Shown: piece after piece, positions 8,928 through 63,502 of the stretch | Numbering within the stretch: position 1 is the first letter of the stretch | Layout of the letters: every line of letters starts with the position of its first letter | Assembly (NCBI GenBank): GCA_965205975.1 | Contig: OZ242195.1 | Span: forward strand, 3,862,656-3,926,655 | Source: Candidatus Latescibacterota bacterium | GTDB taxonomy: Bacteria > Latescibacterota > UBA2968 | Direction: 5' to 3' | Length of the DNA stretch: 64,000 nucleotides | Notes under the pieces: generated by a model | What the model was told of the DNA's origin: nothing | The model's input: the letters and a program-made list of their open reading frames with translations, nothing else | Databases searched by the model: none | Made by a program: the position numbers and the translations under genes

Positions 8928-8942
8928 CTCTAACCTCCTTAT

Positions 8943-42350: not shown

Positions 42351-42358
42351 AAAACGAA

Positions 42359-46045: not shown

Positions 46046-46115
46046 TACAAACTCCTCTATTGAAAATGGAATCGGGAAGCCTCACATTTGGGAAACTTCC
46101 CGATCCATCGGCGAA

Positions 46116-49100
46116 TTACTTGAGCAGCATCAGCTTCCGCACATCGCTGAACTTTCCGTCTGCCGCAATCTGGTAGAAGTAAATTCCACTCGAAACCGGC
46201 ACACCGCGCTCATCCATACCATTCCAGCGGATCTGATAGCGACCCGCATTCTGTGCCTCAGAAGCGACCAGCGTCCGAACCACCTGACCCAACACATTGT
46301 AAATCTGGAGCGTCACGTCAGCGGACTCGGCCAAATCGTACTTAATGGTCGTATCCGGGTTAAATGGATTGGGGAAGTTCTGGTGCAAAGCGAACTCTCT
46401 GGGTGTGCTCTGGAGTTCCAACACACCCGCGACCACCGCCGGGTTCTGCAACTGACTCGGGTCAAAGACCAGACCGTTGGCAATCTCAAACCGGGCGTTA
46501 TCCTCGAACTCATACAACACGCGGAACACAAACCGGACAATGTCGCCACCGCCGGAAACCGCTGTACCATTATACATACCCGTGGCAACTTCAACCTGAC
46601 CGTCGCCCGCGATGTGATGGAACAACGTCTCGCCACCTGTTGACGTGAGCAAATCCTCATCGGCCTGAGCAACACTCACGAACTCGAACTTCGCAGCATC
46701 GTAATTGAGCGTGAACCCATAACCGATCACAGATGCGACATTGGCAAGCGATACATCGACAGCCACCAACTCGCCAGCAACCACGCGCTCGCTACCCAGA
46801 CTCAGTGAGAACTCAGCATTCTCGTTTACGCCGGGAGCCAGAACGATAGGCTTAGACGCCGGACCATCAATTGTCCTGCCCCAAGAAGTAATAAACAGGA
46901 GGAAGTCAGCCACATCAACCGTGTCATCATCGTTGATATCAGCCTGAGGATTGTAATTCGCATCACCAGGACTGCTACCCCACGCAGCAACAAGGGCAAG
47001 GAAGTCATCCACGCCAACCGTGCCAGAAGACTTGGCAATCAGATAAACGGGATCGCCATTTGCATCGACATAACTGCGACGACCCATTTGCTCTTCATGG
47101 ACAATATCAAGACTCGTCGAATACTGACCACTCGTAGCCGTCACCGACACAGTGCCTGACCCGGTCAGGGTAATAGACTGTGTAGCATAGCCACTGGCAT
47201 CTGCTGTCGCTTCTGTCTCATCACCGTCAACGTTAAAGGTAACCGTATCGCCCTCGTCCAGACCTTCTGCACGAGCCGTTACCTCTACCTCGCCACCAGC
47301 GGGAATCGTGACAGTTTCACCAGCCTGATCCCCATCCATACCGGGAACCCAGAGCGTAATGGAAAGATCCAGAGGCGCGCTAATGGTAAAACTCTCAGTA
47401 GCTTTGATATCCCTACTCCGCATATCAGCATCGTCTAAGGACGCATTCGCGACCAAGACCTGAACCGCCACACTCTTCTTGTTATCAGGTGCTACGAGTT
47501 CAAACGTCTCACCTGCCAACGGAATCGGCCATTCAAATAGAGAAGGCAGATCATCAAGCGCGGGATTGGAACGGAACGTAACGTCAACATCATCATATTT
47601 GAGGACTTTCGCCGTAATGGCAGCGGCCGTTTTGACGACATTTGCATCCAACAGATTCAAGGTGTCTGCAACATTGGCTGGAGCCTGCTTAAAAGCCTTC
47701 AAAGAGGGGTTGCCATACTTATCAGTCGGAACCACTCGGAGAGTGAAATCACCCCAGACCGATGTCGCAGCGCCTACTACGCCTTCTTCCCAAGCAGTTA
47801 TTTCAAAGTCGGCGAAGTCAGCGGCGTCAACAGTAATATCTACTGACTCGGTAATGGTCGCAACACCGTCAGCGCCCATTTCTGTCACAGCAACCGTGAA
47901 AGTACCTGCCTTTTCTGATATCACCACGATACCCTCGAACACGCCTGCAGTCCAGGTATCGCCATTCAGCGTAGCAGAACCGTCTCCATTATCCGTGACA
48001 CCCGTGCCTCCGAAAGATACCTCGGACACCATGTTACCATCGGAATCCGTAGCGGAGACCATCACACCGTCTGCAGAGTAGGTAACAGCCGTCTTTTTCA
48101 ATGTTGCGTCACGCGCCGTAACTTCCAAATGCAACGCCTGACCAGCAATCACAGCAGGCTTATTCTTATTTCCGCCACCAGTGGTAGTGGTAACAAGCAC
48201 AAACTGATCAGCCGAAGGATTAACGATATTGTTGTCAAACGTCAAACCTAATTGCCTGCCACTGGTACCTACATAACCAGCCTTGTCTCGAACATAGACT
48301 TGCAGATCATATACGTCGTCCTGCTGAAGCATTTCGTCTCCGAGGAACGAGATCCTGATATTCTGTCCCACCGTGGACTTCTGAGCAGCAGTACCCGCTA
48401 CTTCGAGAATACCATCACTACCCTCGTAGCGAACCAAAATCGAATCCGCTGCTTCGCTAATACGGAAAACCGGATGCTGTGTCCCGCCGCCAATCTTATT
48501 ATCGGACAGGTCATCAGTATTGGGGAACAATCTCGAAACTGTGGGTGCCAGGTTGTCGAAAATTGCTTGTCCGGCATTTCCAGATGTACCTTTTTTAGGC
48601 GAGACCGTCCCCAGGTTACCAACCTCGTCTCTTACACCAATTTTGAGATTGGCTGCTGCACCCTTATTATACTTCTTCAGCACTCCTGGGTGTTGAGTGG
48701 CCTTGAGAGTAGCATTTCCCTTCCGATGCGTAAGCGCTCCCAAGTCCGCCTGCAAACCTGCATCGTCCGCAGAAAAATCAATATCTTCCAATATAAGGCT
48801 ATCTGCGCCAATGACGATGAACGATTCATGGTTTGTAGCTTCATCAGAACTGAAGTTCAGCGGGTTGAGATCAAGGTCCACATCATCACCTTCTCCGATA
48901 AATGAGTAGAGTTGCGTCGATAGTGATGTGTAGTGCTTATGAGAACTATCGGGATGCGCGATCGTAATTTTCGGCGGCTTGGAATCCAGCGTAAATACCG
49001 CAGACAATCCGCCGTCGGCAACATCTGCATCCAATTCAGTCTGGGTATATTGATCGCCTTTGTTACCAGCTTTATCCGTCACCTGTGCCCGCGCACGCAC

Positions 49101-50528
49101 CATCATATTATCGGCTTCAAGCAGATCATTCTTCTTAACTTTATCAGCCGCATAAGCTGTGGTAGCTTTGCGCTTAAACTGGTTCGCCGACACTGTGAAC
49201 TTATGGCTCACTTCACCGCCAGCATCCAATATTTCTCTAGCCATAAACGTCTTAGAAAACCCAACCAGAGGTGCATCTGCAGCGACGACCGGTACTTCAT
49301 CACCACTGCCCATTTGATCAGGAGTTGGATCCCTCACATCTTCTCCCGTATCGATGATTTCAACCAGCACGCTGGTATCGTTGAAAATACCATTGATGGT
49401 CACGCTCAACGTAATCTGGTCCTTGATGCCAGCTGTTGTTGTCCCACCAACACCATTTTTGTTAGCAATTTTATGCGTCAAGGCACTAACAACATCGCCA
49501 CCAGGTGCAACGCGGTCAATTTTTATCAGCCTTCCATCACCGACCACATCATCAAAAGCCGAATGAATCTTTGTTTCGGTGTCCCGGCTCTCAATCTGGT
49601 TATTTGCACTAAGATCACCGCTGGTCAATGTAGCAACAGCATACACCTTGGACAAATCCGCATCCGTGCCAGCAGTTCCCGGTGGTATTGTAAGCACGAA
49701 CTCAAGCGTGTCATAGTGGCCCGTTCGGGATCTCTCTGTATAGAATGCCTGAGTGCCTGCACCGCCGGCGTCTGCTTCCAGGGTATCCTTTTTTACATCT
49801 TCCAGACCCAAACTGCTGAGTTGATTGTTTGTGCCCTGTGAAATTGTCATGGAATAGTATGCCGTAGCAGAGGCAGGGCGTTTACTACCAGTAGTTGCAT
49901 CTACATTATCACCATCCTGAGACTCATCAAACAACCCAACCGAAATCGAAGAAAAGTTACCCCAGGGGAAGGACGGGCCCTGTCTGCGAAGCAACCGAAC
50001 CTTAACCTTGCCTTCGATTCCCGTCCACTCCTTAGATGGTGGCACGATTTCAACGCGGAATCCCGAAACAGAATTAGCGGCGGGCGTGCCAACAGCCACC
50101 GCGTTATCGTTTATTTCAAGGGTAGCAGTCTGACTCTCGAAATTAGGTGCAGAAGCCGTCACTGTGACTGTTATATCTTGATCATCTTTATCCTGTGTGA
50201 TACCCGCGAAAACCAGTACACCATCTGTTGAGGTACCAGTTACATTGCCCGAAGTAACCGGCACTTCGACATCAACGGAGGGCCTGCCATCATAGGCACC
50301 TCGCATAGATGGCGCAGTTACTCTCACAGTAACCGTCGTGTCATTGTCAGGAGCGGTTTCGAAAGTCACATTCACGGACGCTGTCACTGTCGAGCTTGCG
50401 ACATTATCCTGTATAGTAGTCGGATTAAGCGTAAGCGTGATTGTGTTTTGTGCAAAACTATCTGGCACTCCGATGCCCACCATGAGCAAAAGAGCCGCCA
50501 AAAAGCCAATTGTTTTGTGAAAATTCAT
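46116..50528 (-). CDS. giant secreted surface protein (1470 aa) with the same C-terminal dockerin-like / cohesin-like / T9SS-tail architecture
   Basis: Signal MNFHKTIGFLAALLLMVGIGVPDSFA. GVDDFLALVAAWG...DINDDDTVDVADFLLFITSWG (dockerin-like). GVNENAEFSLSLGSERVVAGELVAVDVSLANVASVIGYGFTLNYDAAKFEFV. C-terminal tail near-identical to that of 42359..46045. Confidence 0.8.
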   Translation of the reverse strand: MNFHKTIGFLAALLLMVGIGVPDSFAQNTITLTLNPTTIQDNVASSTVTASVNVTFETAPDNDTTVTVRVTAPSMRGAYDGRPSVDVEVPVTSGNVTGTSTDGVLVFAGITQDKDDQDITVTVTASAPNFESQTATLEINDNAVAVGTPAANSVSGFRVEIVPPSKEWTGIEGKVKVRLLRRQGPSFPWGNFSSISVGLFDESQDGDNVDATTGSKRPASATAYYSMTISQGTNNQLSSLGLEDVKKDTLEADAGGAGTQAFYTERSRTGHYDTLEFVLTIPPGTAGTDADLSKVYAVATLTSGDLSANNQIESRDTETKIHSAFDDVVGDGRLIKIDRVAPGGDVVSALTHKIANKNGVGGTTTAGIKDQITLSVTINGIFNDTSVLVEIIDTGEDVRDPTPDQMGSGDEVPVVAADAPLVGFSKTFMAREILDAGGEVSHKFTVSANQFKRKATTAYAADKVKKNDLLEADNMMVRARAQVTDKAGNKGDQYTQTELDADVADGGLSAVFTLDSKPPKITIAHPDSSHKHYTSLSTQLYSFIGEGDDVDLDLNPLNFSSDEATNHESFIVIGADSLILEDIDFSADDAGLQADLGALTHRKGNATLKATQHPGVLKKYNKGAAANLKIGVRDEVGNLGTVSPKKGTSGNAGQAIFDNLAPTVSRLFPNTDDLSDNKIGGGTQHPVFRISEAADSILVRYEGSDGILEVAGTAAQKSTVGQNIRISFLGDEMLQQDDVYDLQVYVRDKAGYVGTSGRQLGLTFDNNIVNPSADQFVLVTTTTGGGNKNKPAVIAGQALHLEVTARDATLKKTAVTYSADGVMVSATDSDGNMVSEVSFGGTGVTDNGDGSATLNGDTWTAGVFEGIVVISEKAGTFTVAVTEMGADGVATITESVDITVDAADFADFEITAWEEGVVGAATSVWGDFTLRVVPTDKYGNPSLKAFKQAPANVADTLNLLDANVVKTAAAITAKVLKYDDVDVTFRSNPALDDLPSLFEWPIPLAGETFELVAPDNKKSVAVQVLVANASLDDADMRSRDIKATESFTISAPLDLSITLWVPGMDGDQAGETVTIPAGGEVEVTARAEGLDEGDTVTFNVDGDETEATADASGYATQSITLTGSGTVSVTATSGQYSTSLDIVHEEQMGRRSYVDANGDPVYLIAKSSGTVGVDDFLALVAAWGSSPGDANYNPQADINDDDTVDVADFLLFITSWGRTIDGPASKPIVLAPGVNENAEFSLSLGSERVVAGELVAVDVSLANVASVIGYGFTLNYDAAKFEFVSVAQADEDLLTSTGGETLFHHIAGDGQVEVATGMYNGTAVSGGGDIVRFVFRVLYEFEDNARFEIANGLVFDPSQLQNPAVVAGVLELQSTPREFALHQNFPNPFNPDTTIKYDLAESADVTLQIYNVLGQVVRTLVASEAQNAGRYQIRWNGMDERGVPVSSGIYFYQIAADGKFSDVRKLMLLK

Positions 50529-51100
50529 CCTATCGACCTCCTAAAAAAAAGTCAGGATCGAGTAAATGATTGTTTACGAACGTTTTGATTCTACTGCGAA
50601 ACTGCATCATCTCGCGCTGTCCATCGCGCTGTTTAAGACCGGACCCCAGAACAGGGTGAGAGCCGCGACCTTTGCGACACAGCGGAGAAGTTGATCGGGT
50701 TTCAAACCCGACCCTACGAAAATCCAAATTTATATCCCTCCCTTCAACAGACTTGTTTTCATTTCTTTTAATTCCTTTCAATACAACAAGTTACGAACAA
50801 CTATGAATTAACCATTTTATTCAAGTACCTCCTTCCAAAAACAGCCTAACACACACCAATGCAACATCCTCACAATGGCGTTAAGGAGTAATGCGTTAGG
50901 AAAAATCAACACCCTTTCTGTTTTGTTTGATGTTTGATTCATGGGAACTGCTCCACCTTAAATATATGACGGGCTAATTATATGCAATCAAAATGGTAGT
51001 GTCAAGCGTTTTTTCTTCGGTAATGATATGATAATAAAAAAGAAACGCAAAGGCAATCAGAAACGGTGTACAACTGGTCGATTCCCAGACCAGTTCATCA

Positions 51101-51350
51101 GGATGTACAGGATTAAAGGATGTACAGGATGAAAGGCAAAAGCAAAAGGCAAAAAGCATCCGCAGATGACGCAGATGACGCGGATGAAAAGGCGAAAGGC
51201 AAAGGCAACCACAGATGAACACCGATGAACACGGATGAAAAGGCGAAAGGCAGAGGCGAATCCGCAGATGACGCAGATGACACAGATAAAAGGCAAAGGC
51301 AAAAGCAAACCTTCTGGATCGCGGGTAACACCACCCCGCGATGACACCTT
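51101..51350. repeat. array of short direct repeats plus a B-type palindromic repeat
   Basis: CAGGATGTACAGGAT..., CCGCAGATGACGCAGATGACGCGGATGAAAAGGCGAAAGGCAAAGGCAACCACAGATGAACACCGATGAACACGGATGAAAAGGCGAAAGGC..., CTTCTGGATCGCGGGTAACACCACCCCGCGATGAC. Confidence 0.85.
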
Positions 51351-51407
51351 AGAGGCAAAGGCAAAAGCAAAATCTTCTCCAGTGGTAGCGCATCCGAGAC
51401 ACCTTTT

Positions 51408-51671
51408 TTATCCGAGTTTGACAAGAATGAGCGTTCCGAGTGTGATCAACGTTGTAAGCTGCGTGCTGATCAAAATACCGATAAGCCAGCGAAAATCTGT
51501 TCTGGCGGTTTGGCGTGTTTCGGCAAAGCCATGCTCAACCTTTTGCTCAAGGCTGGTCAAGCGCGTCTCAAGGCTGGTCAAGCGCGTGGCGATTTGCTCA
51601 GTAATGCCTTCAACCCGCGATAGGCGGGCGTCAAACTCGGACAGCTTGTTTTCAACGGTTGGAAGCTGCAT
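51408..51671 (-). CDS. small coiled-coil protein with a C-terminal TM helix (paralog of 57490..57774)
   Basis: MQLPTVENKLSEFDARLSRVEGITEQIATRLTSLETRLTSLEQ... followed by TM LIGILISTQLTTLITLGTLILV. It aligns with the MQLPSAESRMADIDTRMSRIEGIVDQIVQRLTSMDARMTSIEQ paralog. Confidence 0.55.
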   Translation of the reverse strand: MQLPTVENKLSEFDARLSRVEGITEQIATRLTSLETRLTSLEQKVEHGFAETRQTARTDFRWLIGILISTQLTTLITLGTLILVKLG

Positions 51672-51742
51672 TGTAAAAACTCCAGTGAAAGGAATATACG
51701 GTTTAAGGAATATAAGGAATATGGGGGAAGAACAAAAGTAAA

Positions 51743-53383
51743 TTACCTGCTTTCAGCCGCGAAGCGGATACCATTATTGGGTGGGGGTTCTGGCGCATTG
51801 GGATTGACTTGCTTCATAATCTGATCCAAATTCCCGACAACTATCGGATTGTACGCCTCCCATTGACGGATCGGCGCATCATTCTCGTCTCGGCGCCAGA
51901 TCTGGACATCGCCGAATTGCTTCTCCACTGTATAGCCGGGAATAGTGAGATTGGTATTCTCCGACACAATATGGCTGACCGAAGCCGCAGTTATCTCCAG
52001 ACCCTTGTTTATCGCACGCCCTGAATACGCATCGTAAAACGGTATCTCCCGGTGCAAATAGTAGTAGCCAGGAAGGTTGTAATAAGGTCGGTCGGCCTGC
52101 CACACCCCCAGAACACCGGGCACGCGGGCGAGATAGCGATACGCGGCAAAAATCGGATCCTGATCGCGGATGAACCCCACCTTCCCCGTCTCTTTGGAAA
52201 AAGCGCGATAAATCTGAACCTGTGAAGGCAGCGCATTCAGAACCCCGCCTATTGAAATTGCCGCGAACAAACCCCCCACCAATCCCCAAACGCGCACATG
52301 CCCACCAAATCGCGCCACCACATCTGCACCGAGCAAAAGCCACAGCGGAACAACCGCAAAAACGAACCGGTACTCCTTGTGCGCCTGAACAGAATGAATG
52401 AGCAACACCAGAGCGACCATCGCCAGAACAAACCCATAACGCCGCACATCGCGCAATGCGACAACCACACACAGCGCACCCAACCCCACACTCGCCAGCA
52501 AAAGCCACCACAAAAACTGGTATCCCGGGGACTCGCCAGCGCGCCCCTGATCAAAGATGAGATTAAAACGGATATTCGCAACATAGGAATGAAATAAACC
52601 GCCATCCCACGTCATCGCATCGAACACCCCCACCGCCAGCAAAAACGCACCCGCAGCAACCAATAGCTGAACCTTCTTCTCCGTCCTCAAAAAGAACACA
52701 CCCAAAAGCAACAATGCAATCGGCGCGTACTGCACTCGTATCGCCGCCGCCAGCACCGCCACAAGTGCCATCAACCAGACCGTCCCCATCCTGTGTACCG
52801 ACGACCGCGCACACATCACCAGCAACGCCATCAACAGGGCCGTAGCCACAAACTCCGTCATCGGCTTGTGGGCAAACCCCACCAACTCATACCAGAAAGC
52901 ACCAGCCAATAATGCAACCCGCGCCGAAGTCTCCCCAAAATGCCGCCGCGCAAAAAAATACATCCCCACTGGAATCAACAGAGAAATTGCACAAAACATC
53001 AGCTTGACACCGCCCACATACCAGAACGGCTCATCGAGTCCCACCAGATCAAACACCTTCAACACCCCCGCAACCATGCCCGGCACCAGCCATGCACGCG
53101 CCCCGTAAAAAAACTCCCAATACGTAACCCCATTCCCAAAAACCAGACGATGCGCCGGCTCCAAATACTGCATAATTTCATCCGGGTGCAAAACAAAATC
53201 GCCACACAGCGCAATCGCCGCACGCACCGCGAATGCCAAAACAAGCACTGGCAACAAAAACTTCCACGGACGCTCATCGGACACCTGCAAATGCAACACG
53301 CGATCCACCAAAGGGACCAACGACCTCTGCCGATCCCCGCGCGGATCGCGGCGCGTCCTCCTTGTCTTCCTTCTGTTTGCCAT
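51743..53383 (-). CDS. GT-C-fold membrane glycosyltransferase, ALG9/PIG-B-like mannosyltransferase family (GT22-like)
   Basis: Polytopic. The LHPDEIMQYLEPAHRLVFGNGVTYWEF motif is typical of the Glyco_transf_22 / mannosyltransferase family. The polybasic N-terminus MANRRKTRRTRR is shared with the gene at 54288..55844. Confidence 0.6.
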   Translation of the reverse strand: MANRRKTRRTRRDPRGDRQRSLVPLVDRVLHLQVSDERPWKFLLPVLVLAFAVRAAIALCGDFVLHPDEIMQYLEPAHRLVFGNGVTYWEFFYGARAWLVPGMVAGVLKVFDLVGLDEPFWYVGGVKLMFCAISLLIPVGMYFFARRHFGETSARVALLAGAFWYELVGFAHKPMTEFVATALLMALLVMCARSSVHRMGTVWLMALVAVLAAAIRVQYAPIALLLLGVFFLRTEKKVQLLVAAGAFLLAVGVFDAMTWDGGLFHSYVANIRFNLIFDQGRAGESPGYQFLWWLLLASVGLGALCVVVALRDVRRYGFVLAMVALVLLIHSVQAHKEYRFVFAVVPLWLLLGADVVARFGGHVRVWGLVGGLFAAISIGGVLNALPSQVQIYRAFSKETGKVGFIRDQDPIFAAYRYLARVPGVLGVWQADRPYYNLPGYYYLHREIPFYDAYSGRAINKGLEITAASVSHIVSENTNLTIPGYTVEKQFGDVQIWRRDENDAPIRQWEAYNPIVVGNLDQIMKQVNPNAPEPPPNNGIRFAAESR

Positions 53384-53545
53384 TTCGTCTCCGTGAGCGG
53401 AAAACTTACACCAATCTATTAACCAAAATAAAAAACAAACGCCTCACGGGTCGGCAAAAAGACCTGGGAGGCACTTAAAAAAAGATAGAACCTTCTGGAT
53501 CACGCGGGACGGCACAGGGGCCGTCCCCTACAACACCAGACTGCG
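53384..53545 (-). promoter_or_regulatory. duplicated ~150-bp leader/promoter cassette (copy 1) with a terminator-like hairpin in the 5' UTR, plus a B/A repeat
   Basis: Near-identical copies at 55845-56030 and 57041-57150. In mRNA sense it reads GCCTCCCAGGTCTTTTTGCCGACCCGTGAGGC, then GUUUGUUUUUUAUUUU, then ...CCGCTCACGGAGACGAA-ATG. Confidence 0.6.
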
Positions 53546-53589
53546 ATGACGGTGATGGATTATTGGCGTCAGGCTTCAGGGCAATCGCG

Positions 53590-54108
53590 TCACGCATCCA
53601 ACACGTGCTCAAATGCCTCAAGACTGGACACCTGAACCGCCGAGCGAAGCAACTGCTTCAGGCGCTGCAAATCATCAATCGCGGCAATGCGCGTGGATAG
53701 CGGGTGCGCTTCACGCAGATCAAATCGAATCTCCAACACGTCGAGGATATCTTCGAGCTTACTTCTTCTTTCACCTTCCTCAATACCCTGTTGCTTGATG
53801 TATTGTGTAAACGACGATTCGCGCATGATGGCGTCCATAAGACCCTCCTGTAAGAGAATGCGATTGATCAGTGCCTCATCATACTCTAACCCACTCAATA
53901 TCATCAACCGCTCCAAAATGTCAACCTTTATTGATTCATCCACCCGCAAAGCATTTGCAGCGTCAACACAGTGATGCAGCCACGCCTCTGAATCTATGCC
54001 AACAGGACGCTTCATCAACGATGCAAATGGAAACAAGCCCGAAGGTCCACCATCAAGAATATCCTGTCCTTCTATCTCACTCAACCGAATCACTGTGTAT
54101 TCTAACAA
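53590..54108 (-). pseudogene. N-terminally truncated Rpn-family (YhgA-like recombination-promoting nuclease / putative transposase) gene fragment
   Basis: Its 172 aa align with residues ~125-321 of the full-length paralog 57875..58840 (VIRLSEIEGQDILDGGPSGLFPF...). It lacks the N-terminal PD-(D/E)XK nuclease region and the GIEQ repeat. The upstream sequence 54170-54290 matches the upstream region of the intact copy. Confidence 0.6.
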
Positions 54109-54287
54109 AACGCGACGGCCGAGAAAATCCTGGATATAATATCCCGGATCGCGCCGACCTGCATTGCGCCCCTAACTTGAATGCAGGAATCACTTTGAGA
54201 GATACATATAAATGGAACGCGCTGGGCGTTAAGCGTGTAAGTTTTGATCTATGGAGGATGGGATATCGTGAAAAATATGTACCTTTA

Positions 54288-55844
54288 TCACTCCCGTGGA
54301 GAAAGATAGAGAATCGGCATTTTCTTGTTGATATATGCTTGCATCAACCTTTTTTTAAGCGCCCTCTCCCGCTCAAAATTGGCGATATGGTAGGCAATCT
54401 GTGGCCTCGTCCACTGCCAAAGACTATCCTTGTCGGGATTGTTATCGCGCGTCTCGTTCCACCACTGCTCGGTCCATCCCGTCACACTATAACTATAAGC
54501 CCCGATGAATTGCACCGTAACGGACCAAATCAACAAAGCACCAAACAGCACCCGCATGCGACGGTTGGCAACAACCCGCTCAATAATCGGAACCATCAAC
54601 AGCGCAAAAAATGGAACCGTATCCACAATAGACCGATAACCATAAGCCGAGCCGCCCCACCAATCGTACCACATAGACGCCACCAGAATCAGCAACACAG
54701 TCGCCACTTGCAGGGGAAGCAAAGGTCGGTAGCGAGAATCTCGCCACGCCAACACCGCGCCGACAACGCCGAACAACAGCACAGGAGAAAAGAAAACCAA
54801 CCCTCGCGACGGACTGATAAAAAGCCCCGGCAGGCTCTCCCACACGGGACTCTGCCAGAGATCGTCAGACCCCGTAGTCGCAAGCGCGATATTCTTCGAC
54901 GTAATGGTCTGCCCAAACTCGAGAATATTACCAAAGTAGTAGCCATTGTACGCTGCCAGGATAACGGCGAAAGGCACCCCCCCAAGCACAAAAGCAACGA
55001 ACCCGCGGCGATTCACCCACAACAAATACGCCCCCACGCAAACAACCACCACAGCACTCGTCGGACGGCACAAAACCGCCATGCCAAGAGCCGCACCACA
55101 ATAAGCCGCATAGCACTCTCGCACTGAGATACCAAACAAAAAATAAGCACCAAGACTTAAAAAAAACGTATTCGCCGGATGCTGCCAAAGTGCCTGACTG
55201 CTAATGGGCCACGCGCAACTGCCCAGCCCAAACGCCAGAGCCACCAGAAACGCAGGTATGGGCGCGACAAAGCGACGCGCCGACAAAAAAATGAACAACG
55301 TCGCAAATGCGACCAGCAAAGAAGCGGTCAAGGCACCGCCGTGCCACCACCAGTACCGATCGGATTCAACATCGACAAAAAAATCGAGAACCGCATAAAT
55401 CGGCAGCCCGACAACCGCCGATCCAATCCCAAAAGCGTTGACATACACATCGGGCCGCGTGGTCTGGGCAAGATAGTAGCCTCCTCTGGCTTTTAATTGG
55501 CCCTTCTCGTACAGATCATTGACCTCCTGATCCCAGGCGTTGACAGTGACACGAAGCGGATTCTCACCGGGCCGTTCCAGTGTCCATAAAAAAGCCCCCG
55601 GCGCATCTGGCGGACTGAGCGAAAAGGTGTTGCGCTTTAGCAGATTCACGCTAAGCAGCATATTGCCTTCCTGATCACCACCAGGGAGAAAATCGCCATT
55701 GCTCACGTACGCCCCAAAGCAACCGACGAACAGGAGAACCGGCAGAAAGTATTTCGACAAAGCCACTCTCCCCCCAGCCTGCGCAGTCGGCGTTGCGCCT
55801 GGTCTTTCGAGACGCGTCCTTCTCGTTTTCCTTCTTCTTGCCAT
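54288..55844 (-). CDS. GT-C-fold membrane glycosyltransferase (ArnT/PMT_2-like family)
   Basis: Polytopic, 518 aa from the ATG at M31 (MARRRKTRRTRLERPG...). Architecture is characteristic of GT-C glycosyltransferases. Its first ~12 codons and ~150 bp of upstream DNA are shared with the gene at 51743..53383. Confidence 0.55.
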   Translation of the reverse strand: MARRRKTRRTRLERPGATPTAQAGGRVALSKYFLPVLLFVGCFGAYVSNGDFLPGGDQEGNMLLSVNLLKRNTFSLSPPDAPGAFLWTLERPGENPLRVTVNAWDQEVNDLYEKGQLKARGGYYLAQTTRPDVYVNAFGIGSAVVGLPIYAVLDFFVDVESDRYWWWHGGALTASLLVAFATLFIFLSARRFVAPIPAFLVALAFGLGSCAWPISSQALWQHPANTFFLSLGAYFLFGISVRECYAAYCGAALGMAVLCRPTSAVVVVCVGAYLLWVNRRGFVAFVLGGVPFAVILAAYNGYYFGNILEFGQTITSKNIALATTGSDDLWQSPVWESLPGLFISPSRGLVFFSPVLLFGVVGAVLAWRDSRYRPLLPLQVATVLLILVASMWYDWWGGSAYGYRSIVDTVPFFALLMVPIIERVVANRRMRVLFGALLIWSVTVQFIGAYSYSVTGWTEQWWNETRDNNPDKDSLWQWTRPQIAYHIANFERERALKKRLMQAYINKKMPILYLSPRE

Positions 55845-56030
55845 TTCATCTCCGTGAGCGGAAAACTTACACCAATCTATAACCAATATAAAAAACAAAC
55901 GCCTCACGGGTCGGCAAAAAGACCTAAGAGGCACTTGAAGAAAGAGAGAACCTTCTGGATCGCGCGGGACGGCACGGGGCCTGCCCCGTAATGTCTCTAT
56001 ACGGGGACCGTCCCCTACTATGCCGTGATG
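55845..56030 (-). promoter_or_regulatory. duplicated leader/promoter cassette (copy 2) plus a B/A-type repeat
   Basis: CTCCGTGAGCGGAAAACTTACACCAATCTATAACCAATATAAAAAACAAACGCCTCACGGGTCGGCAAAAAGACCTAAGAGGC...CTTCTGGATCGCGCGGGACGGCACGGGGCC... Confidence 0.6.
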
Positions 56031-56135
56031 TCACAGATGACAAGCTGGGTATTGGTTCTTGATTTTCAGTCCCAGGTTTTATATTTTTTTCGCAACAATC
56101 TATATCTTCCAAACCATTATTAAAGGATTTTAGAC

Positions 56136-56387
56136 ATGAATAAAACGATAAAAACAAAAGTAACAGCCCAAGGGGTTTTGATCCCTCGGCAGTTGTTAGA
56201 AGGAATCGAAGAAGTGGAAATAAAAAAAGAAAATGATGTAATTACAATTATGCCGACGGGACAGATAAATTCCAACGGTAGCCGTTCACAGCTTGATCCC
56301 ATTTGGAATCTGGGAGAAAATCCAGTGGAATGTGATATTTCAGATGCTTCCGAACAGCATGACAAATATTTGTATGGAACATCTTGA
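56136..56387 (+). CDS. vapB: type II antitoxin VapB (AbrB/MazE-fold)
   Basis: 83 aa. It overlaps a downstream PIN-domain gene by 4 nt. AT-rich islet. Confidence 0.7.
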   Translation: MNKTIKTKVTAQGVLIPRQLLEGIEEVEIKKENDVITIMPTGQINSNGSRSQLDPIWNLGENPVECDISDASEQHDKYLYGTS

Positions 56388-56800
56388 TGAACTCAAATAT
56401 ATTCTTTCTTGATACAGGTTATCTCATTGCCCTTGAAGCTTCAAACGACAAAAATCATACACGCGCAAAAAATCATTGGCAAAATCTTATTCGCTCGCGC
56501 CCGTCTTTAGTGACCACTTCCTTTGTATTTGATGAAGCGGTCACTTTTTTTAACAGTCGAAATCGACATGATAAAGCAGTTGAAGTTGGCTCGCGTCTCT
56601 TGAACAGTCCTTCCATTCGGTTAATCCAGGTGGATGATTCTCTTTTTCGCAAAGGTTGGGAATATTTCGAGCAACATTCAGATAAGCTCTACTCTTTGAC
56701 AGATTGCATTTCATTTGTTGTCATGCAACAACAAAAAATTCAGACCGCCCTAACTTTTGATAGACACTTTACGCAAGCCAATTTTTTGACCATTCCCTAA
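56384..56800 (+). CDS. vapC: type II toxin VapC (PIN-domain ribonuclease)
   Basis: FLDTGYLIAL (first acidic residue) ... FVFDEAVTFF ... LTDCISFVVM ... FDRHF: the PIN acidic quartet pattern. 138 aa. Confidence 0.8.
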   Translation: MMNSNIFFLDTGYLIALEASNDKNHTRAKNHWQNLIRSRPSLVTTSFVFDEAVTFFNSRNRHDKAVEVGSRLLNSPSIRLIQVDDSLFRKGWEYFEQHSDKLYSLTDCISFVVMQQQKIQTALTFDRHFTQANFLTIP

Positions 56801-56880
56801 ATCTCCAGTGCTGTAACGTCAAGTCATCTTATGTCTTAATGTTTTAACTGCTCTCATCTCTTTTAAGCACTTCTCGACAC

Positions 56881-57040
56881 AGATCATTAGAACACATCTG
56901 CAAGTGGCAATTGCCAGCCGGGCACGACATCGCCGCCATCAATAAGACCCTCCTGTAAGAGAATGCGATTGATCAGTGTCTGATCATAGGCTAACCCACT
57001 CAATATCATCAGCCGACCCAAAATGTCAACCTTTCTTTAG
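56881..57040 (-). pseudogene. internal fragment of an Rpn-family gene fused to leader cassette copy 3
   Basis: 56930-57040 is about 85% identical to 53820-53940, which encodes ...MDAIMRE..LINRILLQEGL... It is followed upstream by leader copy 57041-57110 and a B repeat at 57111-57150. Confidence 0.5.
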
Positions 57041-57176
57041 CCGAGATAAAAAAATAAACGCCTCACGGGTCGGCAAAAAGACCTAAGAGGCACTTGAAGA
57101 AAGATAGAACCTTCTGGATCGCGGCTTTAATCATGCCGCGATGACAACAACAGCACAACGTCAATATCGCGCATTA

Positions 57177-57455
57177 TTATTTCAGCCCAACCTCTCGACG
57201 CAAGTCGTCAACGGATTGGGCGGGTTCTGTACCGGCTTTTGCTCGATTTAGCGCTGTTGCCAATCGTTCCGCATTTTTGGGTGAGCTGAGAAGATGAGCG
57301 GTTTCTATGAGACTGGCAAGCTCAGACGCAGAAATCAAAGCAACATCTTCATGCCCCGGACGGGTGATAATGACGTAATCACTGTCATCCGTCACATCTT
57401 TGCAGAGACTGGCGAGCCTATCGCGTGCCTGAGTATAGGAAAATGTTCTGGTCAT
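57177..57455 (-). CDS. yefM: Phd/YefM-family type II antitoxin (orphan; no toxin gene downstream)
   Basis: 92 aa: MTRTFSYTQARDRLASLCKDVTDDSDYVIITRPGHEDVALISASELASLIETAHL is the YefM fold signature. The position where a toxin gene would be expected downstream is occupied by a B-type repeat. Confidence 0.75.
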   Translation of the reverse strand: MTRTFSYTQARDRLASLCKDVTDDSDYVIITRPGHEDVALISASELASLIETAHLLSSPKNAERLATALNRAKAGTEPAQSVDDLRREVGLK

Positions 57456-57489
57456 ATTATTTGAAATATAAGGAATAACAAAGCCCGCC

Positions 57490-57774
57490 CTATTTGGGGA
57501 GATTCATCAAAATGGTAATTGACGTGCCGAAAATGGCGATCAGAACCGTCAAAAGAAGTCCAACCGTCCATTTTAAATGGCTGGTCATGCGGGTTTCTAT
57601 ACTGTTCAAACGGTTGTCCACACGGGTTGACAATTCGCGTTGGCTTTGCTCAATGCTGGTCATGCGAGCGTCCATGCTGGTCAAACGCTGCACGATCTGA
57701 TCAACAATCCCTTCTATTCGACTCATGCGCGTATCGATATCGGCCATTCTGCTTTCTGCTGACGGAAGCTGCAT
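57490..57774 (-). CDS. small coiled-coil protein with a C-terminal TM helix (paralog of 51408..51671)
   Basis: 94 aa taking the ATG at M6 (MQLPSAESRMADIDTRMSRIEGIVDQ...), then TM WTVGLLLTVLIAIFGTSITILM. Confidence 0.55.
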   Translation of the reverse strand: MQLPSAESRMADIDTRMSRIEGIVDQIVQRLTSMDARMTSIEQSQRELSTRVDNRLNSIETRMTSHLKWTVGLLLTVLIAIFGTSITILMNLPK

Positions 57775-57874
57775 TGTGTGTCCTATCATTTTCGAATGAT
57801 ACGTTTAAGCGCGCGGAACCTGGCCCCGTAGCTATAATATATTGAAGACGATGATAAATATGAAGGAAATCGCG

Positions 57875-58840
57875 TCACCCATCCAACGCTTGCTCAAATG
57901 CCTCAAGATTGGACACCTGGATCGCCGCACGGTGCAACTGCTTGAGACGTTGCAAATCATCAATCGCGGCAATGCGTTTGGATAGCGGGTGTGCTTCACG
58001 CAGGTCAAATCGAATCTCCAACACGTCGAGAATATCTTCAATCGCGCGTTGCCTGCCCCCTTGCTCAATACCTTGCTCAATACCTTGCTCAATACCCTGC
58101 TCAATACCTTGCTCAATACCTTGCTCAATACCCTGCTCAATACCTTGCTCAATACCTAATTGCTTGATGTATTGTGCAGACAATGATTCGCGCATAATGG
58201 CATCCATAAGACCCTCCTGTAATAGAATACGATTGATCAGTGTCGGATCATACGCTAACCCACTCAATATCATCAACCTGCCTAAAAAGTCAACCTTTAT
58301 TGATTCATCCACCGGCAGCGCATTCGTCGCGTCAACACAGTGACGCAGCCACGCCTCTGAATCTATGCCAGACGGACGCTTCATCAACGGCACGAACGGA
58401 AACAAGCCCGAAGGTCCACCATCAAGAATATCCTGTCCCTCTATTTCACTCAGCCGAATCACGCTATATTTGATCACAGCAAGATGGCCGGACATTTTAT
58501 GAATAAAGTGCCCCGGATCGCGCCGACCTGCATTGCGTCGCAAGTAGATCACACTGGAATAAATCGGCAGGTTGTGCTGCTCTATCGCACGTATCATATA
58601 GCCCGCCATGCGCAGCGGCATAGACGGATCGTCAGTGGTTTGAAACTCCGTATGGATCAACGCCTCCTCACCTGCGATAAGGACGCGGATAAGGCTGTCC
58701 ATGTGTCGTGTTTCAACGGTGTTTTGCTCTGTGTCGAGGATGTCGAGGACTTCTACATCGTCCTGTCCGAATGTGAGGCGGATGAAGTCTTTGGGGTAGG
58801 TTTGGATGAGGTCTTTAGAGATGGTGTCATATTCGGCCAT
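57875..58840 (-). CDS. Rpn-family recombination-promoting nuclease / putative transposase (YhgA-like), with an internal (GIEQ)x8 repeat
   Basis: 321 aa. N-terminal PD-(D/E)XK-like region (DSLIRVLIAGEEALIHTEFQ), a C-terminal DUF4351-like region, and a 12-bp in-frame tandem repeat at ~58040-58140. Confidence 0.7.
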   Translation of the reverse strand: MAEYDTISKDLIQTYPKDFIRLTFGQDDVEVLDILDTEQNTVETRHMDSLIRVLIAGEEALIHTEFQTTDDPSMPLRMAGYMIRAIEQHNLPIYSSVIYLRRNAGRRDPGHFIHKMSGHLAVIKYSVIRLSEIEGQDILDGGPSGLFPFVPLMKRPSGIDSEAWLRHCVDATNALPVDESIKVDFLGRLMILSGLAYDPTLINRILLQEGLMDAIMRESLSAQYIKQLGIEQGIEQGIEQGIEQGIEQGIEQGIEQGIEQGGRQRAIEDILDVLEIRFDLREAHPLSKRIAAIDDLQRLKQLHRAAIQVSNLEAFEQALDG

Positions 58841-59098
58841 GTGGCATGCCTCGCGTCTGATGGGTGAATTTGATCAGACACAAAGCAAATATCAGGCCAA
58901 CATCACTGAATTGAGCGATACATTGTATGGACAGAAGCTCAAATAGCCGCATCAGGCGTTTAATATGCTGTAACCTGAATGCAGGAAGCACCTTTGGAGA
59001 TACATACACATGGAACGCGCTGAAAGGTAAGAGTGTAAGTTTTGATCCATGAAGAATGGGATATCGTGAAAAATATGTACCTTATTATTATAACGCAA

Positions 59099-59719
59099 TC
59101 ATTTCTCGATACTGTGTTCAAGCCGGCCGATCTCGTCGCGCAGCCTGGCGGCTTCTTCGTACTCTTCCAGCGCAACCGCCTCTTGCAAACGCGCCTTGAG
59201 CGCATCTACCTGCTGCGTCACCTGATCGGGTGCCTCTTCAGTGGATTCATCCTCTCCTGCAGCCCTTATAAAAGCAGCAATATTCTCAACGCCTTCAATG
59301 GGTGCCTCGGCCTCTTGCATCTCGACCGACAGCCCCGCCTCCTCAATCACCTGATCTGCCACAAAAATCGGGGCATCAACGCGCAACGCCAATGCCAGCG
59401 CATCGCTCGGACGCGAATCAATACAAATCGATTCCCCATCGCGGACAAGCGTAATCTCCGCAAAAAACGTCTCGTCTTTCAACGCACTGACCAGCACCTG
59501 CTCGACGTGTACATCGAACCCCTCTAAAATATCACACAACAAATCATAGGCAATCGGGCGCGGCGGCGGCTCATCGTGAAGCGCTATAGAAATCGCAACC
59601 GCCTCAAAATTGCCAATCGCAATGGGCAAAAAGACCTTCTGGTCCTTATCCTTTAGCCAGACCAGCGGATGACTGCTATTGGGTTCAAGCTGCACGGCAA
59701 TCACTTCCATTTCTGTCAT
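59099..59719 (-). CDS. bifunctional nuclease (BFN/DUF151) domain protein with a C-terminal UVR motif
   Basis: IALHDEPPPRPIAYDL..FAEITLVRDGE..IDSRPSDALALALR and C-terminal ALEEYEEAARLRDEIGRLE (UvrB/C-like). The ATG is at M13 of the TTG-initiated track ORF. Confidence 0.7.
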   Translation of the reverse strand: MTEMEVIAVQLEPNSSHPLVWLKDKDQKVFLPIAIGNFEAVAISIALHDEPPPRPIAYDLLCDILEGFDVHVEQVLVSALKDETFFAEITLVRDGESICIDSRPSDALALALRVDAPIFVADQVIEEAGLSVEMQEAEAPIEGVENIAAFIRAAGEDESTEEAPDQVTQQVDALKARLQEAVALEEYEEAARLRDEIGRLEHSIEK

Positions 59720-59732
59720 GCGAGAAATCCTT

Positions 59733-59966
59733 TTAGATGAGGGAATTAGATACAATATCGAATATAAAAGTCTCGAACCTCAAATCTCGTATATTTAGAT
59801 TTTTGCAACCCTGCAATAACACGAGCCAACACATATTGACGGCAATTGCAAAATACTCTGTCTCGTTACTCCGAACAACAGGAACAAGGTCAGTCACAAA
59901 AATAAGCAGATGTTTACGGATTCCAATTTCATCTTGAGCAAGAATACAGGTGCCCGCTAATCCCAT
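59733..59966 (-). CDS. small ORF downstream of the second Panacea-domain gene; N-terminally homologous to 21624..21989 (candidate toxin, possibly truncated)
   Basis: MGLAGTCILAQDEIGIRKHLLIFVTDLV aligns with MSLAGECYLFEDGGGYHLHIFLTDYL. 77 aa. It overlaps the Panacea gene stop by 10 nt. Confidence 0.4.
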   Translation of the reverse strand: MGLAGTCILAQDEIGIRKHLLIFVTDLVPVVRSNETEYFAIAVNMCWLVLLQGCKNLNIRDLRFETFIFDIVSNSLI

Positions 59967-60661
59967 GCATGTCCAATCATTTTTTCAAAATCCGCTCTGA
60001 TAGCCAAATCTTCTCGTATATCCAATATATCATCCTCATCCCATCCAACAGCACGCAACCAATTATTCCACTCAATAGGTCGAGCAGTGTTACCCGTATC
60101 TTCATACTCTGCCAATTTGTGCGTCTGTTGAGATATTTCATGAAAAGACATATGTCCAACTTCTTCTATCACTTTGTTGATATATTCCATATTCGCTTCA
60201 GACAACGCACCTGTACCAACTTCAACATCTCGCAACTTTACAAGATGTTTGGTATCAAGCCCCCAAAATACCTTATTCCAATACCTACCATTGCCTTCTT
60301 TTATCAATCTATATGTACAGCTCAATAACGGTCCAAACTTCATATTACAAGGACGATCAAAAGTGATGGGATAACCGCGGTCCTCCAGAGACTTTCGATC
60401 TATCAAATAGATTATCTTGAGCAATTTGCCCATATCCATCTTATTGTTAAATTTCTTTACCAATAAGGCAGCAACCTGCACTGTTTTTCTCTCATCAAAA
60501 TCAGGAAGTTTCAAGTCGTCAACGTGAGAGGACCGTAATGTTGCCAGACTCGTTGGACAAGATTCGAGGTAACACCAGTGTACAGGGTTCCGTTGCGTTT
60601 GCTCGCCATGATATATACGCAGGGTTGGTTCATTCCTTAAATATTCTGGATCGCGGCTCAA
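59957..60661 (-). CDS. Panacea-domain (DUF4065, PanA-like antitoxin) protein, paralog 2
   Basis: MGKLLKIIYLIDRKSLEDRGYPITFDRPCNMKFGPLLSCTYRL aligns along its length with 21992..22570. AT-rich islet. The start is uncertain. Confidence 0.65.
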   Translation of the reverse strand: MSRDPEYLRNEPTLRIYHGEQTQRNPVHWCYLESCPTSLATLRSSHVDDLKLPDFDERKTVQVAALLVKKFNNKMDMGKLLKIIYLIDRKSLEDRGYPITFDRPCNMKFGPLLSCTYRLIKEGNGRYWNKVFWGLDTKHLVKLRDVEVGTGALSEANMEYINKVIEEVGHMSFHEISQQTHKLAEYEDTGNTARPIEWNNWLRAVGWDEDDILDIREDLAIRADFEKMIGHAWD

Positions 60662-62020: not shown

Positions 62021-62105
62021 GCGCGAATAGACGAATCAACGAATAGACGAATCAACGAATAGACGAATCAACGAATAGACGAATCAACGAATAGACGAAT
62101 CGGCG
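62021..62105. repeat. 16-bp tandem repeat (ACGAATAGACGAATCA) x5
   Basis: CGAATAGACGAATCAACGAATAGACGAATCAACGAATAGACGAATCAACGAATAGACGAATCAACGAATAGACGAATCGGCGAACAGAC. Confidence 0.9.
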
Positions 62106-62112
62106 AACAGAC

Positions 62113-62153
62113 AAAAAAAGCGGAAGACGCAAACACGTCTTCCGCTTTTTTTC
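62113..62153. terminator. bidirectional Rho-independent terminator
   Basis: AAAAAAAGCGGAAGACG-CAAACA-CGTCTTCCGCTTTTTTTC, sitting between the convergent FGE and rplI genes. Confidence 0.85.
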
Positions 62154-63500: not shown

Positions 63501-63502
63501 GT

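Follow-up and report, generated by a model that had tools for sequence, protein, structure and literature searches.

A repeated 5' cassette and leader before two non-homologous GT-C glycosyltransferase genes in a hypervariable, Rpn-bearing islet of an uncultured marine bacterium

The window analyzed here is a stretch of 64,000 nt from a Candidatus Latescibacterota bacterium (assembly GCA_965205975.1, contig OZ242195.1, positions 3,862,656 to 3,926,655 of the forward strand). Near its end, a non-coding cassette followed by about 12 shared codons stands before two unrelated GT-C glycosyltransferase (GT) genes, GT1 and GT2, and a third copy of the cassette is joined to a fragment of an Rpn-type (YhgA-like) nuclease gene. 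Homolog searches showed that the locus belongs to uncultured marine bacteria, the relatives being labeled Gemmatimonadota or Ca. Latescibacterota. We retrieved 11 related loci from other genomes (designated by L numbers), 8 of which, from 7 genomes, were syntenic with the window. The syntenic loci share one flank with the rpsF-rpsR-rplI genes, an FGE-sulfatase gene and a BFN/UVR nuclease gene, and another flank with giant surface-protein genes of the type IX secretion system (T9SS) type, which carry cohesin, FlgD_ig and Por_Secre_tail domains. The nucleotide identity of the flanks was approximately 95–96% in L001, L004, and L006 and 87–95% in L002 and L007; the content between them differed in each genome compared. 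From the sequence, we describe the region as a hypervariable islet between housekeeping genes and giant surface-protein genes that appears to consist of two parts. The first is an accessory, defence-island-like stretch of predicted Rpn units, toxin-antitoxin pairs and small coiled-coil membrane proteins, with a hairpin resembling repetitive extragenic palindromic (REP) elements after each module. The second is a GT-C glycosyltransferase gene cluster, the gene content of which varies among the relatives.

Every gene that takes part in the repeats lies on the minus strand; a VapBC pair (56136–56800) between them is on the opposite one. The features that form the repeats are as follows:

51743–53383, minus strand: GT1, a GT22 (Alg9-like) GT-C glycosyltransferase gene (PF03901), 546 aa, with the leader MANRRKTRRTRR
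53384–53550, minus strand: cassette copy 1, with a REP-like hairpin containing a nested GC hairpin (53489–53550), a terminator-like hairpin and U-run (53428–53476), spacer variant 1 and a ribosome-binding site
53580–54168, minus strand: truncated Rpn copy, 84% identical to the full copy; open reading frame (ORF) 53590–54108 of 172 aa, in which the nuclease core is gone and the C-terminal domain has one repeat unit
54173–54285, minus strand: elemA copy 2, which starts 2 nt past the GT2 stop codon and forms the left end of the putative second duplicated unit
54288–55844, minus strand: GT2, a PMT_2/GT39-like GT-C glycosyltransferase gene, 518 aa, with the leader MARRRKTRRTRL
55845–55990, minus strand: cassette copy 2, with nested GC-rich hairpins, the REP motif CGCGATCCAGAAGGTT, a terminator-like hairpin and U-run (55888–55936), spacer variant 1 and a GGAGA ribosome-binding site
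56937–57037, minus strand: internal Rpn fragment joined to cassette copy 3, with the internal ATG mutated
57039–57149, minus strand: cassette copy 3, with a REP-like hairpin (57108–57145), a terminator-like hairpin and U-run (57046–57095) and the start of spacer variant 2
57875–58840, minus strand: full-length Rpn-like gene, 321 aa, with a predicted N-terminal PD-(D/E)XK nuclease domain and a C-terminal helical domain
58059–58154, minus strand: 12-nt tandem repeat encoding 8 x GIEQ in the C-terminal helix of the Rpn protein
58205–58222, minus strand: internal ribosome-binding site AGGAGG and the ATG of Met212, 5 nt apart, a putative RpnS-type internal start
58971–59083, minus strand: elemA copy 1, 113 nt, about 130 nt upstream of the full-length Rpn gene

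The repeats were located by self-BLASTN and a repeat finder. A preliminary description of this DNA, made without database searches, had named an identity of the shared segments below about 80% as a result that would refute it; the identities were 84–92% (E 1e-24 to 1e-122). The divergence of 8–16% between the copies shows that they are not collapsed assembly repeats. The central claim of that description, a cassette with about 12 codons before two different GT-C genes, was borne out: 53346–53528 aligned with 55807–55987 at 89.6% over 183 nt (E 1e-62), and no BLASTP similarity between GT1 and GT2 was found past the leader (best E 0.73). The full-length and N-terminally truncated Rpn genes that it listed aligned in two segments (53773–54168 with 58142–58537, 84.3%; 53580–53790 with 57865–58075, 84.4%), and the element of about 110 bp that it placed upstream of both corresponds to elemA (54173–54285 with 58971–59083, 86.7%). 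The third cassette copy also exists (57034–57123 with 55876–55964, 92.2% over 90 nt, E 2e-29), as does the Rpn fragment fused to it, which is about 100 nt long and is 89–91% identical to 58201–58301 and 53834–53932. Their limits, however, had to be redrawn, from 57041–57110 to 57039–57149 for the copy and from 56881–57040 to 56937–57037 for the fragment; the stretch 56859–56968 aligns instead with L006 DNA, namely a Uma2 gene at its 3' end and the adjoining flank. At the junction of copy 3 with the fragment lies a motif of about 12 nt, AAAGGTTGaCAtTTT, common to spacer variant 2 and the Rpn coding sequence, and no gene stands behind this copy. ElemA, which is also found 5' of Rpn copies in L002, L004, L007, and L014, probably serves the Rpn unit as its 5' region or promoter.

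On the coding strand, the cassette consists of a REP-like palindrome that belongs to the module upstream, a hairpin with a U-run, an AT-rich spacer of about 45 nt in two variants with a GGAGA ribosome-binding site at its end, and the ATG with 12 purine-rich codons, which would encode the start of a polybasic N-terminal tail. In the alignment of copies 1 and 2, the similarity starts at the GC-rich hairpin and ends at codon 12 of both GT genes. The terminator-like hairpin has the form AAGUGCCUC..GGUC-loop-GACC..GAGGCGUUU, directly followed by GUUUUUUAU, in all three window copies, and a cassette of different sequence in L002 (type B; that of the window is type A) contains GGGGACGGUCUC...GAGACGGUCCCC and then U8. 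Thus, both cassette types have a GC-rich hairpin directly followed by a U-run, the mark of an intrinsic, Rho-independent terminator, and in both it lies about 45 nt before the ATG; folding z-scores ranged from -1.2 to -3.4. An insertion lengthens the hairpin stem in L007 and L014. Judging from this structure, the hairpin and U-run may act as an intrinsic-terminator-like insulator or attenuator.

The REP-like palindrome is imperfect and about 38 nt long (GTCATCGCGG-loop-CCGCGATCCAGAAGGTT), and in some copies a second GC-rich hairpin, GTAGGGGACGGCCCC..GCCGTCCC, is nested in the loop. We counted 12 occurrences of its core motif, AACCTTCTGGATCGCG, in the window, where 0.02 would be expected by chance; all are on the same strand, with starts (plus-strand coordinates) at 11245, 27240, 29990, 30648, 34199, 40241, 51308, 53489, 55949, 57108, 60640, and 60894. 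The copies typically lie 30–60 nt past a stop codon and are also found between housekeeping-type genes across the window. In L006, such a repeat stands behind nearly all accessory genes; in L002, a tandem array of about 1.1 kb (3004–4150) made of related units of about 49 nt occupies the syntenic site, and at the array site of L006 there is an IS200/Y1-type transposase (Y1_Tnp) gene (2061–2594, 37.6 bits). No Y1 transposase gene was identified in the window itself. Each cassette copy has a REP-like repeat as its left boundary, and the right boundary of the cassette is formed by the shared leader codons, which, as shown below, both genes already had; ordinary homologous recombination or tandem duplication with deletion would therefore be sufficient.

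These observations bear on a passive origin, in which REP-like repeats, Rpn paralogs and the shared leader feed RecA-dependent unequal crossing-over or gene conversion and the triplicated cassette is a neutral by-product. The excess of one-strand REP-like motifs and their place at the left boundary of each cassette copy, the abundance of the repeats behind the accessory genes of L006, the array of L002 and the Y1-type gene all fit such an origin. It leaves unexplained, however, the position of the left junction, exactly behind the stop codon of GT2 and with no visible homology, and the joining of copy 3 through microhomology; moreover, the contrast in L002 between cassettes that are 95% identical and Rpn copies that are 78% identical suggests that the 5' region is under selection or undergoes targeted conversion. 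We regard a purely passive origin as a serious candidate whose chances are somewhat short of even.

Comparison of the islets of the relatives demonstrated how the cassette is placed elsewhere:

L001, between the flanks: truncated Rpn, XhlA-like, coiled-coil genes, YefM, cassette-GT2, 45 nt, GT1
L006, between the flanks: YefM-YoeB, Rpn, YefM-YoeB, cassette-GT2, 105 nt, GT1
L008, a short TARA scaffold that does not cover the flanks: cassette-GT2, 48 nt, GT1, VapBC
L007, between the flanks: Rpn, XhlA-like, cassette-GT1, larger glycan cluster; no GT2
L011, a 10-kb contig that does not cover the upstream flank: Uma2, cassette-GT1a, PIG-V-like GT, three more genes, GT1b
L004/L015, between the flanks: Rpn, small gene, Rpn, cassette-PIG-V-like GT, two genes, GT1
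L014, between the flanks: toxin-antitoxin genes, cassette-GT1, elemA-Rpn, truncated Rpn

In these seven genomes (L001, L006, L008, L007, L011, L004/L015, and L014), the cassette is single-copy and precedes the first GT gene, whatever its family: GT2 in L001, L006, and L008, GT1 in L007, L011, and L014, and a gene of the PIG-V type in L004/L015 (PF04188, 25.2 bits against a cutoff of 22.4). In L007, one contiguous alignment runs through the cassette and GT1 (86.7% over 1762 nt). Over 100 nt, cassette copy 3 of the window and the DNA preceding GT2 in L008 were 94% identical, and the spacer variant 2 of this copy also occurs in L008 and L004. A 20-mer from the cassette core, searched in species-representative genomes, was found in one copy in a single relative; the one other match, an isolated one, was in a Brevifollis contig otherwise unlike the region; a scan of JGI metagenomes with a 24-nt cassette pattern gave 0 matches. 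The single-copy position at the head of the cluster in the relatives indicates that the cassette, the REP-like hairpin apart, belongs natively at the head of a variable GT-C cluster and is neither a dispersed nor a freely moving element. The preliminary description had seen the locus as a place of rearrangement, and here the synteny comparison agreed with it: relatives with about 95% nucleotide identity in the flanks differ in Rpn copy number and position, toxin-antitoxin genes and GT content. The Rpn genes themselves lie before the cluster, between GT2 and GT1, or after GT1, depending on the relative.

Two further origins, an assembly artefact and a mobile element with an outward promoter (a miniature inverted-repeat transposable element (MITE), an insertion sequence (IS) or an integron cassette), are together extremely improbable. 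Metagenome-derived assemblies can hold chimeric repeats, and modules of a gene and a hairpin look superficially like those of integrons. An artefact is at odds with the divergence of the copies, with the comparable architecture in the independent assembly L002 and with a GT1 protein identical to that of the window on a 5.56-Mb contig. As for a mobile element, a search of 49–62 kb gave no inverted repeats with a length of 30 nt or more, and no target-site duplications or integrase gene were seen; in addition, the hairpin element also occurs between housekeeping-type genes, and the cassette core is single-copy in the relatives. Integron cassettes with attC sites were rejected since no integrase gene was found in the window region or the syntenic loci and inspection of the repeats did not reveal the core consensus. 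An IS or MITE was rejected on the lack of inverted-repeat pairs of at least 30 nt in 49–62 kb and on the occurrence of the cassette core, in a single copy, in just one related representative genome.

The closest counterpart of the window was found in L002, where each of the two GT genes is preceded by a copy of the complete unit, elemA through the 12 codons. The junction of the GT2 stop codon with elemA is common to the two, lying within one contiguous alignment of 1675 nt (89%), but the cassette sequence is different, and types A and B cannot be aligned with each other. The two type B copies were 95.2% identical over 228 nt, including private leader variants, whereas the adjoining Rpn copies were 78% identical. 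Two unrelated cassette types, each near-identical within its genome, point to duplication and/or gene conversion rather than to independent conservation. This result also bears on the view of the cassette as a conserved cis-regulatory RNA, a riboswitch or attenuator leader kept alike by purifying selection without duplication. The stable hairpin and U-run at the same distance from the ATG in both types, with the z-scores given above, would be expected of such an RNA. However, a scan of 50500–60000 on both strands with the Rfam covariance models gave no match at E <= 1, adjacent GT2-GT1 pairs exist without a cassette before GT1, copy 3 precedes no gene, and identity within but not between genomes is a signature of duplication or conversion. 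We therefore rate this view as quite improbable, and a conserved RNA as the sole cause of the cassette similarity is largely refuted.

The assignment of GT1 to the GT22 type, already suggested in the preliminary description, was supported by a match to Pfam Glyco_transf_22 (PF03901) with 115.4 bits against a cutoff of 23.8 (E 4.9e-33). GT2 itself had no Pfam match even at E 10; its homologs with 59–70% identity matched PMT_2 (PF13231) with 26.9–29.8 bits (cutoff 26.1), and one of them is named GT39 by NCBI, so that its PMT_2/GT39-like character is predicted through intermediate homologs. The shared leader did not originate at this locus. Orthologs of both GT1 and GT2 start with MA[KR]RRKTRRTRR in dozens of 90%-identity protein clusters across the clade, including L001, L006, L008, and L013, where GT2 and GT1 adjoin without Rpn between them. 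In these four loci, the GT2-GT1 gap is 27–105 nt, and GT1 has a ribosome-binding site and leader codons (about 50 nt shared with GT2) but no cassette. In a distant clade, a leader of 33 residues, MSKRNRSQ...PWSVRLRS, heads GT2 in L005 and GT1 in L010, both being the first gene after gtrA; the same leader on two different genes indicates that the leader is positional and that the gene body behind it changes. A neighbor of the GT pair in L005, of 292 aa, was unrelated to Rpn. In the L007 leader, considered as a possible crossover product of GT2 and GT1, the informative sites were mixed.

Several further observations concern the GT genes. The leaders of L005 (10001–13445) and L010 (6001–7731) look swapped, and the L010 GT1 leader is also found on GT1 in at least 14 other protein clusters. 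GT1 of L005 starts with MAKKKAKKTRCEKPGLTPTAS, which resembles the GT2 N-terminus ...RERPGATPTAQ. L013, a genome of 5.19 Mb, has two GT1 paralogs (P0269 and P0294) and contains a second GT2-GT1 pair (8420–11671) with a shared leader and a 27-nt spacer, located between uvrC and a phage-type integrase gene; its presence at an unrelated site suggests that the pair moves as a unit. The N-terminus of the GT1 ortholog P0249 is that of the small coiled-coil protein described below, another 5' fusion.

The nuclease genes of the window had been taken for members of the Rpn family, and their features agreed with this despite weak profile scores. The full-length protein matched TIGR01784 with 31.1 bits (E 2e-7), below the cutoff of 52.1, and PF04754 with 12.1 bits, below 21. 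Among 44 diverse full-length homologs, 19 matched TIGR01784 at E <= 1e-3 (best 5.5e-14), four matched DUF4351 and one matched PF04754; some proteins 78–79% identical to the window Rpn carry the NCBI name "Rpn family." In the homolog alignment, D48, E65, and Y81 were invariant and D5, K9, Q67, and R77 were kept in at least 90%. Residues D5, D48, E65, Q67, and R77 correspond to D11, D63, E82, Q84, and R94 of RpnA (PMC5350276). The E-x-Q motif and the distance of 10 residues from Q to R are identical to those of RpnA, and the D-to-E distance is 17 residues against 19; the interval D5–D48 is 9 residues shorter than D11–D63, and the spacing of the D48–R77 core is close to that of RpnA. The AlphaFold2 model had a mean predicted local distance difference test score of 95, and its best PDB matches in Foldseek, all weak, were the PD-(D/E)XK proteins XisH, NucS, and BamHI. 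A sequence search of PDB with the family profile returned just a low-complexity match to the GIEQ repeat, and PADLOC gave no meaningful match.

The repeat and the internal start are known traits of the family: variable 4-aa repeats, small RpnS homologs and intragenic RpnS antitoxins paired with RpnL toxins have been described (PMC10400941). The full copy has eight GIEQ units and the truncated copy one; paralogs and orthologs have between 1 and about 13, and the lengths of the homologs rise in steps of 4 aa (293/297/301/305/309/313 aa). The sequence ttacaggagggtcttATGGA was invariant in 10/10 Rpn copies while adjacent synonymous sites vary, and the GIEQ repeat begins 17 residues after M212, within the published range of 8–20 (PMC10400941). 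Given the catalytic residues, the 4-aa repeat and the putative internal start, we consider the window genes to be divergent members of the Rpn family with predicted nuclease activity, although their scores are below the curated cutoffs. Four genomes have free-standing C-terminal ORFs, with lengths of 172 aa (window), 174 aa (L002), 108 aa (L001), and 104 aa (L006). The ratio of nonsynonymous to synonymous substitution rates (dN/dS) was 0.15–0.25 for the truncated window copy against other copies and 0.08 for the short ORFs of L001 and L006, values (0.08–0.25) as low as those of the full-length copies. This indicates purifying selection on the free-standing C-terminal copies, and the 172-aa copy is possibly a free-standing RpnS-like protein.

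The presence of these genes raises the question of whether they took part in the rearrangements. The preliminary description proposed that the recombination activity of Rpn shuffled promoters and 5' coding ends here. In such a scheme, double-strand breaks made by Rpn, followed by RecA-independent template switching or microhomology joining, could have given rise to the duplications and placed the cassette on different genes. Rpn DNA does lie within every duplicated unit and at the copy 3 junction with its microhomology of about 12 nt, and Rpn units occupy differing slots of one locus across the relatives. RpnA is a non-specific endonuclease whose overexpression raises RecA-independent recombination (PMC5350276), and Zhong et al. 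speculate that RpnL may start events giving rise to duplicated rpn genes and small homologs (PMC10400941). This evidence is correlative, however, and the leader is shared without a nearby Rpn in L005, L010, and L013. Most repeat boundaries are REP-like repeats or the pre-existing leader, for which ordinary homologous recombination is enough, and in Escherichia coli, loss of the four active paralogs rpnA-D left basal RecA-independent recombination unchanged (PMC5350276). Rpn is a plausible cause on these grounds, but shuffling driven by it is unlikely to be the explanation, if with a real chance of being right. An active role of Rpn and a structural, evolutionary account are not mutually exclusive.

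We favor, with moderate confidence, an account in which the native head of the GT cluster and an Rpn unit were duplicated locally, partial deletions following. A unit composed of elemA, Rpn, the intergenic cassette and the 12 codons would have been duplicated in direct orientation and would now stand before GT2 and GT1. The simplest route would start with a direct, tandem-type duplication that took in GT2 and the region 5' of it, after which the duplicated body of GT2 would have been deleted as far as the GT1 leader; the left junction would then lie exactly after the GT2 stop codon and the right junction within the leader codons that both genes already had. The second Rpn copy would later have lost its nuclease half, about 434 bp being missing in the window. 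A further duplication and deletion would have joined cassette copy 3 to the Rpn fragment via microhomology. The position of VapBC, 3' of GT1 in L008 but between copies 3 and 2 in the window, would fit duplication followed by deletion. As a result, GT1 would be cut off from GT2 by the Rpn remnant and the terminator-like hairpin while keeping the 5' control region of GT2, and the direct repeats would make GT2 prone to loss by looping out.

Several results weigh against this account or parts of it. Haplotypes with cassette-GT1 (L007, L011, and L014) and cassette-GT2 (L001, L006, and L008) both circulate, so that other orders of events are conceivable and the window could instead be a recombinant of the two. 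A duplication of a single age does not predict the contrast between 95% identical cassettes and 78% identical Rpn copies in L002, which needs later gene conversion or very unequal rates. With regard to expression, the sigma-70 promoter scan detected no sigma-70-like promoter in the cassette, which leaves a promoter of its own for GT1 a hypothesis, and a simple terminator scan missed the cassette hairpin, probably owing to its internal loop. Translation of the leader is likewise inferred: some orthologs are annotated from a start 22–26 codons downstream, and the leader, being purine-rich, cannot readily hold stop codons. In L014, the sole case checked in the DNA, the leader was present and in frame despite the downstream annotated start.

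A bolder extension, which we treat as a doubtful proposition, is that the cassette and leader form a fixed docking site that serves both expression and recombination, behind whose single conserved 5' control region different GT-C bodies (PMT_2-like, GT22, and PIG-V-like) are swapped, duplicated and looped out. The outcome would be more diverse surface glycosylation, possibly that of the giant T9SS proteins next to the cluster, and Rpn breaks would raise the rate. If true, gene cassettes would here be exchanged under the guidance of homology, in a system coupled to a defence nuclease.

The accessory stretch contains further genes that accompany the Rpn units:

51408–51671, minus strand: second gene for a small coiled-coil protein with a C-terminal transmembrane segment, 87 aa, a paralog of 57490–57789, downstream of GT1
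56136–56800, plus strand: VapB-like and VapC (PIN) pair between cassette copies 3 and 2; PIN 54 bits
57177–57455, minus strand: orphan Phd/YefM antitoxin gene (PF02604, 64 bits), its YoeB toxin partner missing
57490–57789, minus strand: gene for a small coiled-coil protein with a C-terminal transmembrane segment, 99 aa, XhlA-like, immediately 3' of the Rpn gene

The 57490–57789 protein matched Pfam XhlA at E 1.4e-6, below the family cutoff, and its segment 57645–57777 has 69% nucleotide identity to 51408–51671, the Pfam matches of which were weak and to coiled coils only. Small coiled-coil genes also stand behind Rpn units in L001 (6307–6591), L004 (2306–2578), and L007 (9485–9802), and two of the proteins from the window and these three loci had sub-threshold XhlA matches; such proteins may be partners of the Rpn unit. 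Complete YefM-YoeB pairs are present in L006 and L014. The REP element and cassette copy 3 begin 27 nt past the stop codon of the orphan YefM gene, and the VapBC module downstream of GT1 in L008 is 91% identical over 833 nt to that of the window.

Other repeats and genes were observed outside the islet. The GC skew was negative in 63 of the 64 one-kb windows of 1–64000 (about -0.1 to -0.39). Paralogous segments lie inside the neighboring giant surface-protein genes with T9SS-type C-termini (42355–43193 and 46112–46947, 73% identity), and another such pair is found at 31067–31623 and 34544–35115 (66%). A 107-nt tandem duplication (38675–38781 and 38787–38893, 97%) is intergenic between 37697–38632 and 38934–39947. 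The rplI-rpsR-rpsF block is flanked by inverted repeats of about 62 nt (62024–62115 and 63441–63503) with an internal periodicity of 7 nt, and similar heptamer arrays occur in L007 and L013. A gene for a SocA/Panacea-domain antitoxin-like protein (59957–60661, 68 bits) lies between the FGE-sulfatase and BFN/UVR genes, a site that is empty of it in L001; just upstream of it, at about 60530–60660, a short ORF starting with MASKRNGTLYTGVTSNLVQRVWQH was noted by eye as a candidate GIY-YIG nuclease N-terminus.

Taken as a whole, the feature is a further instance of known phenomena, namely Rpn arrays formed by local duplication, REP-rich islets and 5'-end capture. Its by-product is unusual: GT-C genes that are not homologous have one control region and N-terminal leader in common, and two genomes show this with two versions of the sequence. 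The locus offers a natural example, from an uncultured phylum, of the Rpn behavior proposed in E. coli, with local direct duplication, the shedding of RpnS-like copies and variation of the 12-nt repeat, in which the duplication also took the control region and first codons of a neighbor onto a non-homologous gene. With its natural variants, it is a concrete place to ask whether Rpn nucleases promote rearrangement in nature. It also suggests that an operon split by an inserted defence gene can hold both halves under identical 5' regions. Finally, a compact and highly variable GT-C cluster beside giant surface proteins is a probable hot spot of surface-glycan diversification.

Four known systems can be compared with the locus. 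The Rpn family (YhgA-like, COG5464/PF04754/TIGR01784; Kingston 2017, PMC5350276; Zhong 2023, PMC10400941), of recombination-promoting nucleases, shares with the window genes a PD-(D/E)XK domain (predicted in the window) with its catalytic residues, a helical C-terminal domain with 4-aa (12-nt) repeats, a conserved internal ribosome-binding site and ATG, and stand-alone small C-terminal homologs. Its genes are likewise multi-copy per genome and form tandem arrays, which arise via tandem direct duplication of genomic regions with no target-site duplications (PMC10400941); terminal inverted repeats are also lacking, and the genes sit among toxin-antitoxin and defence-type genes. In contrast, the window protein falls below the curated cutoffs, has no PADLOC match and comes from an uncultured lineage of the Fibrobacteres-Chlorobi-Bacteroidetes (FCB) group, genes of its type are regularly paired with a small XhlA-like coiled-coil membrane protein, and the duplicated unit carries the 5' control region and first 12 codons of a neighbor.

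The repeats of the window resemble REP elements and bacterial interspersed mosaic elements (BIMEs) in being short palindromes just 3' of genes, in one orientation, with nested hairpin insertions, and the relatives add tandem arrays in L002 and a Y1_Tnp gene beside the array site in L006. They differ from systems of REP-associated tyrosine transposases in having no Y1 gene of their own in the window, a tie to the L006 gene being inferred. Chimeric genes made by tandem duplication and deletion, with capture of a 5' end or promoter, similarly place promoter-proximal DNA and N-terminal codons on non-homologous bodies and have direct repeats around the intervening gene, and the presence or absence of GT2 among the relatives is consistent with looping out; here, however, the pattern recurs with two unrelated cassettes in two genomes, and a positional leader is also seen in a distant clade. 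Lastly, as in variable surface-glycan clusters such as those for O-antigen or capsule, a conserved head (the cassette) and tail (GT1, then the surface-protein genes) enclose swapped GT content (PMT_2-like, GT22, PIG-V-like, and others), with a gtrA neighbor in the distant clade; glycosylation of the adjacent giant T9SS proteins as the substrate is our guess. The islet differs from such clusters in that all of its enzymes are GT-C membrane transferases, the clusters comprise 1 to about 6 genes, and non-homologous genes share at least their first 12 codons.

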